Source: a virus. Taken from it: a DNA stretch of 6,734 bases. Under the pieces are notes generated by a model. The model saw only the letters and a program-made list of their open reading frames with translations, did no database searches and was not told where the DNA came from. Position numbers and translations under genes: made by a program. Location: the UHGV virus genome UHGV-0318484; one strand, 5' to 3'. Shown piece by piece: positions 1 to 6,734 of this stretch. Each line of letters begins with the position of its first letter. Positions within the stretch are counted from its first letter, which is position 1.

Positions 1-501
1 ATTTCCGCCGCAGGTGAGTCTTGGCGGTAAAAATGTGGCCTGGCTGCACTCTGAAGTCACCGCATGGATGGCCGGGCGCATTGCCGGACGCAAACGGGGG
101 TACGACGCATGATGATGCCTGTTCTGCAAAAACTCCCTTTTTCTGGCTTGCCTTTTTCCGGCATTTGCGGATATAGTTTTTCCGTTGCCGCAAAATCGGC
201 AGCCGGGCGTGAGAACCCGAGTATGTTATCGGCGACATATGACGCGCCATGCGTCTTTTTTTGTGTCGCAATCAACGCCACAGAGCACCAGATTATGGTG
301 TGGCGTGTGGTTTGCCGTGCAGGTATGATCCTGTTCGCAATCGCATGTTATGCCTCTGAGTCAATGGTAGCTCAGGCGGGGCAGCCTCCGGGCTGGCCGG
401 TTTCCGATAACGCCGGTATTCTCACCCCCGTCTGGGCTATCGCCATCGAGCGTGAGAACTCCGGCGATAGCGTCATTTACGCTGTTATCGGAGGTTGCCT
501 T

Positions 502-699
502 ATGGCTACGACCCTTACCCCTTCACACCCTGAATTTGTCTTTGTGTTTGCGGCTGTCCGTCGCGCAGACCGTCATCCCCGTATCTGCATGCTTCGCACC
601 GTCGCCGGTGATGAACGCAGTGCCCGCCGTTCCCTTGTCCGTGACTATGTGCTCTCCCTTGCTGCCCGTCTGCCGGTGGTGGAGGTGTCCCGTGCGTAA
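502..699 (+). CDS. Hypothetical small protein, 65 aa ([65 protein letters not shown]); first gene of a two-gene coupled pair
   Basis: ATG at 502 preceded by GGAGG (490-494) with 7-nt spacing; in frame with the long track ORF 64-699, whose upstream part looks like non-coding read-through. Ends in tandem stops TAATAA (697-702). No recognisable family. Confidence 0.4.
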
Positions 700-979
700 T
701 AAAAAAGCCCCTCAGACCGTCTCAGCGCGTCATGACGCCCGTGAACACCTCAGCATTGAGGCTTATCATAAGCTCAACCGTGCCAGCGCCGTATCCCAGT
801 TTGTTGGGGGTGATTTGATTCACCGTGAACTCTCCGGCCTGCATCAGCTCTACATTCCGCATATTTTCAGCTACCTGAATGAAGATATTGATTTTGTGCT
901 GAATGAGCTGAAAGCCAAAGGCCTGTGCCGCGATTTTCTCGCCCAGCAGAAAGACCGGGGAGACAGGACGCATGTTTGA
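692..979 (+). CDS. Hypothetical protein, 95 aa, GTG start ([28 protein letters not shown]...[19 protein letters not shown]); second gene of the coupled pair
   Basis: GTG at 692 preceded by GGAGG (681-685) with 6-nt spacing; overlaps the upstream stop by 8 nt, suggesting translational coupling. This is the 3' part of track ORF 452-979, whose 5' part overlaps the better-supported frame of gene 502-699. Followed by an intrinsic terminator. Confidence 0.45.
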
Positions 980-986
980 TTTTCCC

Positions 987-997
987 CAGCTCCACCA
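987..997 (+). other. Possible att core: CAGCTCCACCA (CCAGCTCCACCA from 986), identical to the 3' acceptor end of tmRNA (ssrA)
   Basis: A 12-nt identity to the recalled E. coli ssrA 3' terminus, about 185 bp upstream of a P4-type integrase start. P4-family integrases recombine at the 3' ends of tRNA/tmRNA genes. The sequence upstream of 986 is not ssrA, so this is a core copy only. Confidence 0.3.
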
Positions 998-1030
998 CTT
1001 GCTCTTCCGGATACGTCCGGAGAAATCCTA

Positions 1031-1066
1031 AAAGCCCGCATGGCACAAGCTCTGCGGGCTTTTTTG
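1031..1066 (+). terminator. Rho-independent terminator
   Basis: Stem GCCCGCA (1034-1040) pairs with TGCGGGC (1053-1059), extended by flanking A/T pairs, followed by TTTTTT (1060-1065). Lies downstream of the 692-979 gene. Confidence 0.6.
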
Positions 1067-2420: not shown

Positions 2421-3779
2421 ATGCCAAATAACTACCATCAATACATCGAAGACGTTAGTGATGATATAAAGACATGTCTTGAAGGAATGGGATGCCAACC
2501 CATACTTTTTGTTGGATCGGGATTAACCAAGAGATATCTTTCTGGCCCAAACTGGGAAGAACTTCTTCAGCAACTTGCTAATGAATGTCCTAACATCGAT
2601 AAAAGATTTGCCTATTATAAACAGAAATACCCCGAGTTGATTGATATCGGCAGTGTATTTTCTGATTCTTATAACGAGTGGGCATGGGGTGATGGAGAGA
2701 AAGAATTTCCAGCAGAGTTATTTGATGCAGGCAATGAGCCAAGTATTTATTTTAAATACAAAGTATCTAGTATTTTCAACTCATTGTTACAAGAAAAAGA
2801 AATCGTAAACAACGGTGAAATTGAACTTCTGAGAAAGATTCACCCTCATTCAATCATCACAACAAATTACGACAAATTACTTGAATCGATATATCCTGAG
2901 TTTACCCCCATTATAGGCCAAAAAATCCTTTACGCTAATCACGGTAGCATTGGTGAAATACTTAAAATACATGGTTGCTGCTCCACTCCTGAAAGCATAA
3001 TAATAAACCGCGATGACTACGATGACTTCATAAAGAAGAAGAAATATTTAAGCGCAAAACTGCTTACTTTCTTTGCTGAACACCCTCTTCTATTTATAGG
3101 TTACAGCGCAGAAGACTCGAACATAAAAAACATACTATCTGATATTGATGAACTACTTTCAGAAAATGGAGATGTCATTCCAAATATATACATTTTAGAA
3201 TGGACGAGCAAACAAAATGAAAGTGAATACCCACGCCGTGAACGGCTGATTCAAGTATCTGCAAACAAAAGCATTAGAATAAAAAGTATAGTAGCAAATG
3301 ACTTCTCTTGGGTATTTTCAGCGTTTGGCGCGAACAGAGCACTTGATAACATAAATCCCAAATTATTGAGGGCACTTTTAGCTCGCACTTACGATCTCGT
3401 CAGAACTGATATACCTCGCAATCCTGTCCAAGTTGATTACCGAGTTTTATCAAGCATTAGCGAGTCAGAAGGTGAATTAGCGAAATTATATGGTATCGCC
3501 ACATCGTCAGATGGTATGGCATTTAATGCCAGTTATCCTTTTACTTTAACCACGCTAGGGCAATCACTTGGTTTCAAAGGCTGGCATGATGCGAACAAAC
3601 TATTAGAAGTAGTTAAAAACATCACGAACGTAGACATCAAGACATTCGATAACAAATACCACTATGCAATAATGAACGGTGATGAGATTCAGTCCCATAG
3701 ATATTCAAACTATCTTCGAGAACTCCTCGAAAAGGTTAGGGATGGAGAGGAGTTTGAGTTAGGAATAAAGGCTCCATAA
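2421..3779 (+). CDS. SIR2-like (sirtuin/DHS-like NAD-binding fold) protein, 452 aa, with an unassigned C-terminal domain of about 200 aa; candidate NAD+-depleting anti-phage effector in the P4 int-cos hotspot
   Basis: AAGGAG (2409-2414) 6 nt before ATG; only 27 nt after the int stop. Motifs typical of defence-associated SIR2 domains (as in ThsA, DSR, SIR2-HerA): PILFVGSGLTKRY (Gly-rich NAD loop, aa 27-39), ITTNYD (Asn at about aa 149), KIHGC (His at about aa 184), LLFIGYSAEDSNI (aa 223-235). Markedly AT-rich compared with neighbours. Terminator follows. Confidence 0.85.
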   Translation: MPNNYHQYIEDVSDDIKTCLEGMGCQPILFVGSGLTKRYLSGPNWEELLQQLANECPNIDKRFAYYKQKYPELIDIGSVFSDSYNEWAWGDGEKEFPAELFDAGNEPSIYFKYKVSSIFNSLLQEKEIVNNGEIELLRKIHPHSIITTNYDKLLESIYPEFTPIIGQKILYANHGSIGEILKIHGCCSTPESIIINRDDYDDFIKKKKYLSAKLLTFFAEHPLLFIGYSAEDSNIKNILSDIDELLSENGDVIPNIYILEWTSKQNESEYPRRERLIQVSANKSIRIKSIVANDFSWVFSAFGANRALDNINPKLLRALLARTYDLVRTDIPRNPVQVDYRVLSSISESEGELAKLYGIATSSDGMAFNASYPFTLTTLGQSLGFKGWHDANKLLEVVKNITNVDIKTFDNKYHYAIMNGDEIQSHRYSNYLRELLEKVRDGEEFELGIKAP

Positions 3780-3985: not shown

Positions 3986-4087
3986 CGCCCGCTTTGCGGG
4001 GCGGTTTTAATGCAGTTGCACTGACACGCTCAGACCGCGCCGGGAATGGTGCGGTCTGCAGAAAATGAGGCAGGAAAACGCATGCAA

Positions 4088-4119
4088 AGCCATGCACCTT
4101 ATCGATGCATGGCTTTTTT
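4088..4119. terminator. Hairpin with flanking T/A tracts between cos and psu; possible bidirectional terminator
   Basis: 9-bp stem AGCCATGCA (4088-4096) pairs with TGCATGGCT (4106-4114), followed by TTTTTT on the plus strand; on the minus strand it is followed by TTTGCATGCGTTTT. Lies just 3' of psu. Confidence 0.5.
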
Positions 4120-4149
4120 CAGTAAAAACGGGCGGATTTTCGGGGAATT

Positions 4150-4722
4150 TTACACAGACTGACGTGATGCCAGTTGCGCACTTTTACGCGAAAAAATCAT
4201 GTTCTGCGCAGGGGTGAATTTTTCACGGCTGTCATCCACCGAAGCCGCGTCAGGCCTGAATCCGATGGCCGTTAAAATGTCGCTATCCTGTGCGGAATAA
4301 TTAATTTTTTCACCCTTCGCAAGCCAGGACAGGAGGGCTTCACGCAGGGCATCTGTGGCACGCTGTATGGCACAGTTTCGGGCAATGGCCGTCAGCTCAC
4401 TGTAGCCCATCAGCTCCGGTGCCAGTGCCGCCGCCAGTGCTGTGCCGTGCTGCTGCATAAAATCATTCAGCCGGTCGCGGATGCTGATGTGCTGAACGGC
4501 TTCATGCGAACGAATATAACGACCGGCGGCCTGATTCACCTGCCATTTTCTGACTTCGATAATATTGCGTAATTCGTCCAAGCGACTGACGTTTCTGCCT
4601 TCTCCTGACAGAAGCCGCAGATATTCCTGTTCGGCCGCAGCCAGCTCATTTTTGCGTTGCAGCCATGCTGCTTTGTTATTCTGACAGGTGTCAAAGGCCT
4701 GCTGTAAGGCTGTGCTTTCCAT
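4150..4722 (-). CDS. psu: Psu, polarity suppression protein (P4 capsid decoration protein and Rho antagonist), 190 aa
   Basis: Length and sequence (MESTALQQAFDTCQNNKAAWLQRKNELAAAEQEYLRLL...SRQSV) match recalled P4 Psu; third gene of the sid-delta-psu late operon reading toward cos. Confidence 0.92.
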   Translation of the reverse strand: MESTALQQAFDTCQNNKAAWLQRKNELAAAEQEYLRLLSGEGRNVSRLDELRNIIEVRKWQVNQAAGRYIRSHEAVQHISIRDRLNDFMQQHGTALAAALAPELMGYSELTAIARNCAIQRATDALREALLSWLAKGEKINYSAQDSDILTAIGFRPDAASVDDSREKFTPAQNMIFSRKSAQLASRQSV

Positions 4723-4795
4723 CGTTATCTCTTTCTCATCATGCTGAAGAATAAAAATACGGTGTGCGGCGACGGCCGGTGTTAACCGGCAGCCC

Positions 4796-5296
4796 TCATT
4801 CCAGACGCAGCGAATATGATTGTGTTTTTAACCGTACTGGCGGCAGTTCCTGTTTTTCATGCAGGCGTTCTGCCAGTTCGTCCGGTGTGACCGGGCGGAC
4901 AATGAAGCGGTTGATGGTCTGAAGCGTTTTAAACACCAGACCACATCCCGGATCCGTGCACACATAAAAACGCTCGGTGACTTCCTGAGACAGACGCCGC
5001 GATGTTCTTGACAGTGCAAGGCCTTTACATCTCCGACAACAATATCCGGTAACAAGCATTCTTTTCGGGCGTTTCATACTACCGGAGGCTGACGTCAGTG
5101 AATCGCGGTATCTCTGTTTGCCTGAAATGTATTCCATTCCTGAATCTTTACAGTCAGAGAAAAAGCTTTCACTCGCTTCAAATGTCGCAGAGCAATAAAT
5201 ATTCCGGCACTGTGCAATCATTATCTTGGTGCCATCGTCCATGAAATGTGCGCGACGGGTGTGAGCAACATGTCCACACGACGGGCAGTAAATCAT
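4796..5296 (-). CDS. delta: Delta, late-gene transcriptional activator (tandem Ogr-like zinc-finger domains), 166 aa
   Basis: Two Ogr-like Cys motifs (CPSCGH...CRNIYC and CCRRC...CTDPGC); length matches P4 Delta. Its start overlaps the sid stop in ATGA (5293-5296). Confidence 0.92.
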   Translation of the reverse strand: MIYCPSCGHVAHTRRAHFMDDGTKIMIAQCRNIYCSATFEASESFFSDCKDSGMEYISGKQRYRDSLTSASGSMKRPKRMLVTGYCCRRCKGLALSRTSRRLSQEVTERFYVCTDPGCGLVFKTLQTINRFIVRPVTPDELAERLHEKQELPPVRLKTQSYSLRLE

Positions 5297-6027
5297 GACA
5301 GCAGTCCTCTGGCCTTAAGCTCTGCTCCCTGCTGGTCTATTTTGTCCTGCCACACCTTGCGCTGTGCCGGTGTGCCTGCCACCTCATAATCCATGTGCGG
5401 GAGTGTTGCCGCTGACAGTCCGGTCAGCCGGAGAACCGGCTCGCCGGTGAGGCTGATTTGCATCTGTTTTATTTTCTGTTCCAGCGATGATTTCACCTGC
5501 TGCATGACAGCCTTTTCCGGCGCGACGTAGCCCTGATGGCCGGTGGTGTTGGCGAGCGGATTTTCCTGTACCAGGATACTCAGATGCATTGCCCGGACAA
5601 GCGCCTCACAGGTTTCATTCAGGGCGTGTTCCAGCTCATGCTCTGCATACAGACTCAGAAGGTGATGATGTGCCTTCCGGTAGGCGGTGGCCGTGCTGTC
5701 ACACGCCCCTTTCAGGCGTTCACGTTCGAAATTCAGCACCACGGCCAGATTGTCATATTCCTGTACCAGCTCCCGGCGTGCCACGCGCTCAATGTGGCGC
5801 TGTTTCAGCTCGTCGCTCAGGACACCACCGGCTGCACGAAAGGCCGTGCGCCAGTCGTCAGCGTCGTTTCCGTCGGCCTGCGCCAGCGCATTTTTTTCCT
5901 GCTCTGCCCGTTCAATGGCCGTGATGGTCTCATCCATCAGGCGGGCGTTCTCAAGATGAGCGGCTCTGGCCTTTTCCAGTTGTGCCAGCGCGGGTTGCAG
6001 ATATTCAGGGATGGTGTTGTCAGACAT
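5293..6027 (-). CDS. sid: Sid, capsid size-determination (external scaffold) protein, 244 aa
   Basis: Sequence MSDNTIPEYLQPALAQLEKARAAHLENARLMDET... matches P4 Sid. Start placed at ATG 6027 (GAGGAG 7 nt upstream) rather than the in-frame GTG at 6045 used by the ORF track. Confidence 0.88.
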   Translation of the reverse strand: MSDNTIPEYLQPALAQLEKARAAHLENARLMDETITAIERAEQEKNALAQADGNDADDWRTAFRAAGGVLSDELKQRHIERVARRELVQEYDNLAVVLNFERERLKGACDSTATAYRKAHHHLLSLYAEHELEHALNETCEALVRAMHLSILVQENPLANTTGHQGYVAPEKAVMQQVKSSLEQKIKQMQISLTGEPVLRLTGLSAATLPHMDYEVAGTPAQRKVWQDKIDQQGAELKARGLLS

Positions 6028-6061
6028 TTTCCGGCTCCTCGTCACTTCAGGTTAAGAAAAT

Positions 6062-6117
6062 TGTGACGTACACCGGACAACAACACGACGCATTGCAGAT
6101 GTGCCAGCCCTGACACA
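6062..6117 (-). promoter_or_regulatory. Psid-type late promoter with two TGT-N12-ACA activator (Delta/Ogr) dyads
   Basis: TGTGCCAGCCCTGACACA (6100-6117) is centred about 81 nt upstream of the sid ATG, consistent with a -55 activator site. A second dyad, TGTGACGTACACCGGACA (6062-6079), is centred 38 bp closer. P2/P4 late promoters are defined by TGT-N12-ACA near -55. Confidence 0.6.
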
Positions 6118-6196
6118 GGAGACTCATCCTCAGACCGGCAAGCCAGGAAAAGGTCGCAGGAAAAACCGGCTTACTGTTTGTTTTTTTATATTTTAC

Positions 6197-6300
6197 TGTT
6201 CACCTCTGTTCACCATAAGAAAAAAGATAAGTAATACAGTAAGTTAAATGGTGAACAATCGCAGTAATGACTGTTCACCGTCTGTTCACCACTGTTCACC
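6197..6300. repeat. Iteron cluster: five direct and one inverted exact copy of TGTTCACC; candidate replication origin (P4 ori/crr-type alpha-binding sites)
   Basis: TGTTCACC at 6197, 6207, 6272, 6283 and 6293; the inverted copy GGTGAACA at 6250; degenerate copies (TGTTTACT, TGTTTGTT) flank. Spacing of 10-11 bp between neighbours. The octamer matches the recalled type I iteron bound by P4 alpha primase-helicase. Confidence 0.7.
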
Positions 6301-6404
6301 CGCTCATGGACTTTTTGTGCTGTTTACTACTGTTTGTTTTTATTAATTCGCCGGGAATGAATAAGAAGAAACGATTTGTATTTCACTATAAAAATTACGA
6401 ATTG

Positions 6405-6434
6405 CTTTAAGTGGCTTTAAATGACTTTAAGTGG
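6405..6434 (+). repeat. Three tandem 10-bp units (CTTTAAGTGG / CTTTAAATGA / CTTTAAGTGG); possible regulator-binding array upstream of the rightward late promoter
   Basis: Direct reading of the sequence; helical-turn periodicity; ends 26 bp before the TGT-N12-ACA at 6460. Confidence 0.3.
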
Positions 6435-6459
6435 GAATGAACAAAAAACACACAGTCAT

Positions 6460-6477
6460 TGTAAGGCGGCCGGAACA
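6460..6477 (+). promoter_or_regulatory. TGT-N12-ACA dyad; candidate activator site of a PLL-type late promoter driving the AlpA/Vis-like gene
   Basis: TGTAAGGCGGCCGGAACA; a -55 site here would put the transcript start near 6523, about 57 nt before the ATG at 6580. Divergent from Psid, as in P4. Confidence 0.4.
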
Positions 6478-6579
6478 AATCCCCCCTGTTGCGTCTGCCA
6501 AAAAGATTCACAAAATAAAGCGCTACCCGAAGCCGGACGGACTTATCCGGTGCTGTATGGACATTAACGAGGTAGCCCG

Positions 6580-6734
6580 ATGCAAGCTGTTTTTTCTTCC
6601 CCGTCTCCCTCCCCTGTGACGCCACTGATGCCGCTGCCGGACATCACGCAGGAGCGTTTTTTACGTCTGCCGGAAGTGATGCACCTGTGCGGCCTGTCAC
6701 GTTCGACCATCTATGAACTCATCCGTAAGGGGGA
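6580..6734 (+). CDS. AlpA-family HTH protein (Vis/excisionase-like regulator), 5' partial; runs off the window end
   Basis: GAGG (6569-6572) 7 nt before ATG at 6580. Translation MQAVFSSPSPSPVTPLMPLPDITQERFLRLPEVMHLCGLSRSTIYELIRKG contains the AlpA-type helix-turn-helix signature. In P4 the vis gene occupies this position. Confidence 0.8.
   Translation, partial: MQAVFSSPSPSPVTPLMPLPDITQERFLRLPEVMHLCGLSRSTIYELIRKG

Follow-up and report, generated by a model that had tools for sequence, protein, structure and literature searches.

The overlapping small genes kil and epsilon of a P4-like satellite, found beside a C4-type immunity RNA in a truncated left operon

Two small open reading frames (ORFs) that overlap one another and are followed by a hairpin with a T-run raise the question of whether such a pair forms a self-contained module, for instance a toxin with its antidote, or whether it belongs to a larger and already known arrangement. 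The pair considered here lies in the viral genome UHGV-0318484, of which the whole stretch of 6,734 nucleotides is referred to below as the window. A preliminary description, made from the letters of the sequence, saw in the two ORFs the architecture of a toxin-antitoxin or other two-component accessory module, followed by a clean intrinsic terminator, recognised no family in either protein and considered the longer ORFs of the six-frame translation, which merge the pair, to be an artefact. The basic reading of the pair holds and recurs in related sequences. The first ORF encodes 65 amino acids and the second, from a GTG start, 95; on direct reading each is preceded by a GGAGG Shine-Dalgarno sequence (490–494 with a spacer of 7 nt for the first, 681–685 with a spacer of 6 nt for the second), and the two share 8 nt (GTGCGTAA, 692–699). 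A hairpin and T-run are also present, 52 nt past the stop codon of the second ORF. By sequence, the two ORFs are kil and epsilon (E) of phage P4, both already known as P4 genes under CI-RNA immunity, and the region as a whole very probably forms the start of the left (early/replication) operon in a P4-type phage satellite, the part subject to immunity control. The features on which this reading is built are collected in Table 1.

Table 1. Coordinates of the features discussed, counted from the first nucleotide of the window.
Feature	Coordinates	Strand	Description
eta	109..699	+	196-codon ORF in the kil frame; spans PLE, seqA and CI, with kil as its 3' end
PLE-type constitutive promoter	148..177	+	TTGCCT, 18-nt spacer, TATAGT; sigma-70-like, from the promoter scan
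seqA leader, upstream CI target	171..261	+	GTTATCGG at 225–232; hairpin and T-run at 241–261, terminator-like in the terminator scan
CI immunity RNA, C4-type antisense	360..447	+	Rfam RF01695 C4, 76.2 bits (GA 45), full-length
seqC, downstream CI target	484..499	+	GTTATCGG at 484–491; abuts/overlaps the kil Shine-Dalgarno sequence at 490–494
kil (ORF1)	502..699	+	ATG 502, TAA 697–699, 65 aa; gene of an Icd-like, putatively cell-killing peptide
epsilon/E (ORF2)	692..979	+	GTG 692, TGA 977–979, 95 aa; predicted helper-derepression protein
orf151 remnant	972..1031	+	six native codons (MFDFPQ) and att-arm sequence, 19 aa in total
ssrA 3' end (CCAGCTCCACCA) and ssrA-type intrinsic terminator	986..1065	+	integrase-proximal att arm
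SIR2_2-domain protein	2421..3779	+	452 aa; int-psu hotspot; best PADLOC match the candidate system PDC-S25, 2.1e-84

The identity of the two proteins follows from profile and pairwise searches. HMM searches, which had been suggested as a check on the pair, matched each protein to a curated family far above the respective cutoff. ORF1 matches the host cell division inhibitor Icd-like family of NCBIfam (NF033153; 76.1 bits against a cutoff of 25), with residues 12–59 aligned to profile positions 1–48, and has 100% identity with translated P4 8171–8365, which forms the 3' end of an ORF labelled ‘cI/ash gene product (aa 1-137)’ in old P4 records. P4 Kil is presumably 65 aa long, in agreement with the sequence. 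ORF2 matches the Derepression protein family of Pfam (PF25738; 170.3 bits against a cutoff of 27) end to end, residues 1–95 being aligned to profile positions 1–95, and stands at 97.9% in tblastn against P4 epsilon, with 94 of 95 residues identical, a GTG start in both and R36Q as the single substitution. The two proteins, first thought to resemble no recognisable family, are thus named by both family and closest relative. The location of kil is also that expected of the P4 gene, directly 3' of a C4/CI-type antisense RNA with a loop complementary to the kil ribosome-binding region. Beyond P4, a tblastn search with Kil (E<=1e-3) recovered cA/gp32 of N15 and icd of PY54 at 44–50% identity and did not recover P1. 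A PDB sequence search with epsilon gave no match at E<=1, and its single-sequence AlphaFold2 model (pLDDT 45.8, pTM 0.23) was too poor for a fold search. In P4, E (epsilon) is an anti-repressor which binds the C repressor of the helper P2 and derepresses the prophage (PMC2995052), and Kil is a truncated form of Eta with a cell-killing function (PMC10111431, summarising Forti et al. 1999). By analogy with this literature, the Kil of the present copy would be toxic and its epsilon would bind P2 C.

Conservation of the pair was assessed in 87 related loci drawn from IMG/VR contigs, genomes and P4 records, which yielded 78 unique sequences of window region 1–990 with nucleotide identities of 70–99.7%. 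Kil begins with ATG in every one of these 78 relatives and is 65 aa long in 77 of them, the exception being a Serratia locus (L008) with 66 aa. Epsilon starts at the aligned GTG in relatives, with ATG in the four most distant, and has a length of 95 aa in 73 of the 74 closer ones, the remaining copy (L088) being interrupted after 14 codons; among the four most distant, it measures 99 aa in one (L091), and in the other three the extracted segment ended before the stop codon. The 8-nt overlap is kept in 77 of the 78 relatives, and the overlapping start and stop are common to those from Escherichia, Serratia and Buttiauxella. Variable sites fall mainly in third codon positions in both genes (6, 2 and 18 at positions 1, 2 and 3 of kil; 4, 3 and 14 in epsilon), and dN/dS against distant relatives is 0.10–0.17 for kil and 0.10–0.20 for epsilon. 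Because of this third-position bias and these ratios, kil and epsilon are to be regarded as real, constrained proteins with the boundaries initially drawn for them; loss of conservation of either ORF in related sequences, which would have spoken against the pair, is not what the relatives display, since lengths and overlap are kept under purifying selection.

The RNA surrounding the epsilon start (640–720) has a predicted folding energy of -15.7 kcal/mol, no better than that of shuffled sequences (z = +1.05), and an RNA structure occluding the epsilon start was rejected on this ground. Given that this RNA is not unusually structured, it is the conserved overlap, and this feature by itself, that suggests translational coupling between kil and epsilon. 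Within epsilon, at 742–769 on the plus strand, a sigma-70-like promoter match was observed (TGAACA, 16-nt spacer, TATCAT), as a match to the consensus only.

The longer ORFs that run across the pair differ in their standing. The six-frame ORF 64..699 shares the frame of kil. The start that matters biologically is the ATG at 109, which overlaps the vis/alpA stop codon (ATGA, 109–112), and the equivalent ORF, eta, is annotated by PGAP in E. coli genomes as ‘Icd-like protein’. Between 109 and 501 the eta frame of the window contains 0 stop codons, versus 7 and 4 in the other two frames; from 109 to the kil ATG it is open in 74 of the 78 relatives, with stops in the other frames summing to 453 and 326. 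The part that belongs to eta only has a dN/dS of ~1 and no codon-position bias. The frame, open in 74 of 78 relatives and yet with such a ratio, is therefore maintained without amino-acid conservation, and the conserved protein of the kil frame begins at 502, as had been proposed. In P4, eta is a gene with kil nested inside it, and its translation prevents termination (PMC10111431, summarising Forti et al. 1999).

The ORF 452..979 was, on the other hand, rejected as a gene, the epsilon frame upstream of 692 being without coding signal. Third-position bias follows the kil frame over 502–691 and the epsilon frame over 700–976, and the variable sites within 502–691 are third positions of kil, which are second positions of the epsilon frame; since the bias over 502–691 fits kil, no coding signal is left for a 452–691 extension of epsilon. 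The dismissal of the longer merged ORFs as artefacts is accordingly sound for 452..979 and mistaken for 64/109..699, which is P4 eta. An antisense ORF (722..973) was likewise rejected, as a mirror of epsilon. The Pfam ‘Ash protein family’ (PF10554) was observed to match 172–537, that is aa 37–158 of ORF 64..699, which covers the translation of the seqA/isrK-like leader and of the CI RNA. As this stretch has a dN/dS of ~1 and no codon-position bias, the family mostly reflects conserved RNA genes. PF10554 has been used as a marker for ‘epsilon’ (PMC8628076), while the real epsilon is PF25738, not PF10554 (Ash).

The control region upstream of the pair contains the elements of CI immunity. The -10 hexamer of the PLE-type promoter (172–177) is, in mapped coordinates, the ‘consensus -10’ annotated at X02534 2367–2372, and the first gene to be translated after PLE is kil, which also forms the 3' end of eta. 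The leader matches the Rfam models c4-a1b1 (171–223; 50.0 bits, GA 46.7) and isrK (184–261; 67.5 bits, GA 50). The loop of the CI RNA, CCGATAAC at 404–411, is its specificity determinant and is complementary to GTTATCGG in both of its targets, seqA upstream and seqC downstream, while CGGAGGTTGC (489–498) is also able to pair with CI 381–390.

Among the 78 relatives, ten variants of the CI loop are found, accompanied by corresponding changes in seqA and seqC. Examples of loop and target are CCGATAAC/GTTATCGG in the window, CCGTTAGA/TCTAACGG, and CCTGTGAA/TTCACAGG of the P4 type, with CCTTGAAG/CTTCAAGG, CCAATAAG/CTTATTGG and CATAGTTA/TAACTATG as further ones. The CI loop of a given relative forms at least 9 contiguous pairs with its own seqC in 76 of the 78, versus a mean of 6.0 for foreign loops. 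This co-variation of loop and seqC was considered to show directly that the antisense RNA targets the ribosome-binding region of kil. In two loci (L062 and L034) loop and targets were observed to be mismatched, the eta frame of L062 being closed as well, and these are possibly recombinant or decaying copies. As read from loop and targets, the immunity type of the window differs from that of P4 itself, and the element is probably heteroimmune to P4; the ten or more loop variants represent a probable catalogue of heteroimmune types.

A mechanism for the region can be proposed from these elements and from P4, in which processing of the untranslated leader releases a CI RNA that pairs with seqA upstream and seqC downstream to cause premature termination (PMC4825925). 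By analogy with the P4 literature, repression in this element would also operate through termination. In the immune (lysogenic) state, transcripts from PLE would be processed into the CI RNA, the loop of which would pair with seqA and with seqC, the latter next to the kil Shine-Dalgarno sequence. Pairing at seqC would exclude ribosomes from kil and trigger premature termination of transcription, and as a consequence of CI pairing neither the toxic Kil peptide nor epsilon would be made. The alternative start would be transcription from the upstream late promoter PLL, whereupon ribosomes ending vis/alpA would re-initiate at the overlapping eta start and translate eta, in the kil frame, straight through seqA, CI and seqC. 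CI would thereby be overridden and transcription would reach epsilon; the protein would then derepress a resident P2-type helper prophage by binding its C repressor. Nothing in the sequence contradicts this explanation as a P4 operon. Because the operon of the window is cut six codons into orf151, downstream read-through would here serve no replication genes.

At its downstream end, the pair leads into orf151, whose ATG overlaps the epsilon stop codon by 8 nt (ATGTTTGA), the same overlap linking epsilon and orf151 in relatives. Six codons into orf151, at 990, the window ceases to be homologous to P4 and to any of the relatives. Epsilon is followed by orf151, not by a terminator, in 87 of 87 related loci, and the order in full relatives is vis, eta/kil, epsilon, orf151, cnr (DUF5375) and the alpha primase-helicase. 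The terminator of the window consists of a 10-bp stem (1031–1040 paired with 1053–1062) and a T-run (to 1065), of which the terminator scan recovers the inner part of the stem at 1047–1061. In E. coli chromosomes, the ssrA 3' end and its terminator are connected to this integrase by a stretch that the window matches without a difference from 986 onwards, and for this reason the terminator is assigned to the ssrA-type attachment arm and not to kil and epsilon.

Two further observations concern this arm. A match to Rfam IsrM at 933–1065 coincides with the 3' flank of ssrA and its terminator; at 32.7 bits, for a gathering score of 376, it is far below threshold and was put down to chance or to shared similarity of att flanks. 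Just upstream of int, at 1104–1170, lie inverted and direct repeats containing GGTATAC (ggtatacgtttaggtatacggtaggatgtatacctaaacgcgtatacc), a similar repeat (GGTATACGATTAGGTATACG) being found near attR of a full element (L092 841–863); these repeats are probably arm-type binding sites of the integrase.

Other explanations of the pair have to be weighed against the P4 operon. The reading as a type II toxin-antitoxin system or like accessory bicistron, in which a toxin and an overlapping protein antidote would end at a terminator, draws on the two small overlapping ORFs, their strong ribosome-binding sites and the terminator 3' of them in the window, and over-expressed Kil does kill cells according to the P4 literature (PMC10111431). 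That terminator, however, is the one of the ssrA/att arm; the pair continues into orf151-cnr-alpha within the same operon in all 87 related loci; and the promoter does not lie directly upstream, PLE being 320 nt away behind an RNA leader with CI. The adjacent promoter and the end of its own that would mark a self-contained bicistron are not found for kil and epsilon. Searches of NCBIfam, Pfam and PADLOC matched neither protein to any family of toxins, antitoxins or defence proteins, nor was an HTH, RHH or AbrB domain found in either, the Icd-like and Derepression families being the only matches, and epsilon is documented in another role, as the anti-repressor of P2 C (PMC2995052). With epsilon so identified, the pair heading a longer operon and the CI RNA in control, the module originally favoured is very unlikely.

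The restraint on Kil is the CI RNA, and this leads to a different form of the same idea, a type I-like pair of toxin and antisense RNA in which CI would serve as the RNA antitoxin of Kil and epsilon would be a passenger. It is in keeping with the complementarity of the CI loop to bases abutting the kil Shine-Dalgarno sequence, which co-varies over ten variants, and with the reported toxicity of Kil (PMC10111431), but it relabels the known immunity circuit of P4 and P1 without offering a different mechanism. CI also pairs with the upstream seqA, and the entire operon downstream is under its control through termination (PMC4825925); purifying selection on epsilon, the supposed passenger, is as strong as that on kil; this form of the idea, too, has a very low probability. 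That the region is a single frameshifted gene, or that the ORFs arose by chance in non-coding sequence, might be suspected from the six-frame ORFs 64..699 and 452..979 that span it. Both ORFs, however, match separate curated families over the full length, the two-gene layout with its 8-nt overlap recurs in P4 and in 77 of 78 relatives, third-position bias fits first the kil frame and then that of epsilon, and one continuous ORF across both genes occurs in none of the 78 relatives. Homology thus points to two genes and not to the single frameshifted one against which the preliminary description had cautioned, and this last explanation can be given almost no credence. The immunity-controlled head of a P4-type left operon is the reading retained.

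Compared with P4 itself, window 1–990 is collinear with the left operon (NC_001609 7888–8875) at 93.8% nucleotide identity. The two have in common Kil (100%), epsilon (94/95) with its GTG start, the -10 hexamer, the ATGA overlap of vis and eta, and the 8-nt overlap of kil and epsilon, located at 8168–8175 in P4. They differ in the CI loop, which is CCTGTGAA in P4 and CCGATAAC in the window, with both targets differing too, and in the extent of the operon, which stops in the window six codons into orf151 so that orf151, cnr, alpha and crr are missing. The integrase is leuX-specific in P4 and ssrA-specific in the window, and the int-psu hotspot holds gop/beta/cII in P4 and a SIR2 gene in the window.

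The closest analogue in logic appears to be the immI locus of P1/P7 (c4, icd, ant), as judged from Rfam and NCBIfam matches together with the P1 literature. In both, an antisense RNA is processed from the transcript that it controls and has one target upstream and another where ribosomes bind to the first ORF, and a small toxic peptide of the Icd family has a stop codon overlapping the start of an anti-repressor gene. The matches of the window to Rfam C4 and c4-a1b1 and to the Icd-like family of NCBIfam form the profile side of this likeness, whereas a tblastn search with epsilon gave no match in the P1/P7 records of the phage collection. Ant of P1 acts on P1's own C1 repressor. Epsilon of the window (PF25738), in contrast, would be directed at the repressor of another phage, the helper P2 (PMC2995052), and the outcome reported for elements of the P4 type is premature termination together with its override by eta translation (PMC4825925, PMC10111431). 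A likeness also exists to isrK/orf45/anrP of Salmonella Gifsy-1: the seqA leader of the window is recognised at 184–261 by the isrK model of Rfam, and the Gifsy-1 locus has an RNA-controlled anti-repressor gene with translation coupled to that of a small ORF ahead of it (PMC4825925). IsrK, however, acts in trans and activates the translation of orf45, and orf45 is conserved in nucleotides and not in amino acids (PMC4825925), whereas kil of the window is under purifying selection at the protein level.

The window as a whole is a circular permutation of a 6,734-bp P4-like element, since vis/alpA is split by its ends (6580..6734 and 1..112; 87 of 88 aa identical to P4 Vis) and the corresponding P4 coordinates are contiguous (8876/8875), window 3986–6734 being equivalent to P4 11624–8876 and window 1–990 to P4 8875–7877. 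A tandem pair of two different islands was rejected, the end and the start of the window being contiguous in P4. The gene order of the circle is int (ssrA type), SIR2_2, cos, psu, delta, sid, vis, PLE-CI, kil, epsilon and att, without orf151, cnr, the alpha primase-helicase and crr, and full ssrA-integrated relatives contain the same genes with orf151-cnr-alpha before attR. The SIR2_2-domain protein has weaker PADLOC matches to the SIR2 regions of ThsA and LmuA and is a candidate single-gene anti-phage system; the hotspots of P4 carry anti-phage systems of such kind (PMC9122126).

At the junction (986–990), epsilon/orf151' runs into the 3' end of ssrA and the int-proximal arm, with only CCAGC (5 bp) common to the parental sites. 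The genuine attR is TTCAAACTCCGCCAGC, and the epsilon/orf151 boundary GGACGCATGTTTGATTTTCCCCAGC agrees with the ssrA T-arm GGACGCGGGTTCAACTCCCGCCAGC at 13 of 21 positions, a loose resemblance. The exact epsilon-att junction was absent from IMG/VR and JGI metagenome contigs, from the 87 epsilon-bearing loci and from 10 loci with the identical integrase, and it was covered by none of 5,426 complete E. coli genomes and by no PLSDB plasmid; for the two ORFs spanning the junction, no record was found. It is rather unlikely that the circle is a real, replication-defective ‘mini-P4’, for which the integrase would have recombined the ssrA att with a pseudo-att at the epsilon/orf151 boundary through a crossover in CCAGC. 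A one-off aberrant excision product, or an artefact of assembly or circularisation, is at least as likely. Should the ‘mini-P4’ be real, epsilon would be the last gene of its operon, ended by an ssrA-type terminator, and the element would need a P4-like element in the same cell in order to replicate, besides P2 for packaging.

As a statement about the pair, the finding re-identifies two textbook genes of the P4 satellite and their control by an antisense RNA, and taken as such it matters little. These two small genes often appear as ‘hypothetical protein’ in RefSeq records, and homology names them unambiguously. The triplet of CI loop, seqA and seqC, with at least ten variants in 78 relatives, provides a simple sequence read-out of the immunity type in P4-like satellites.
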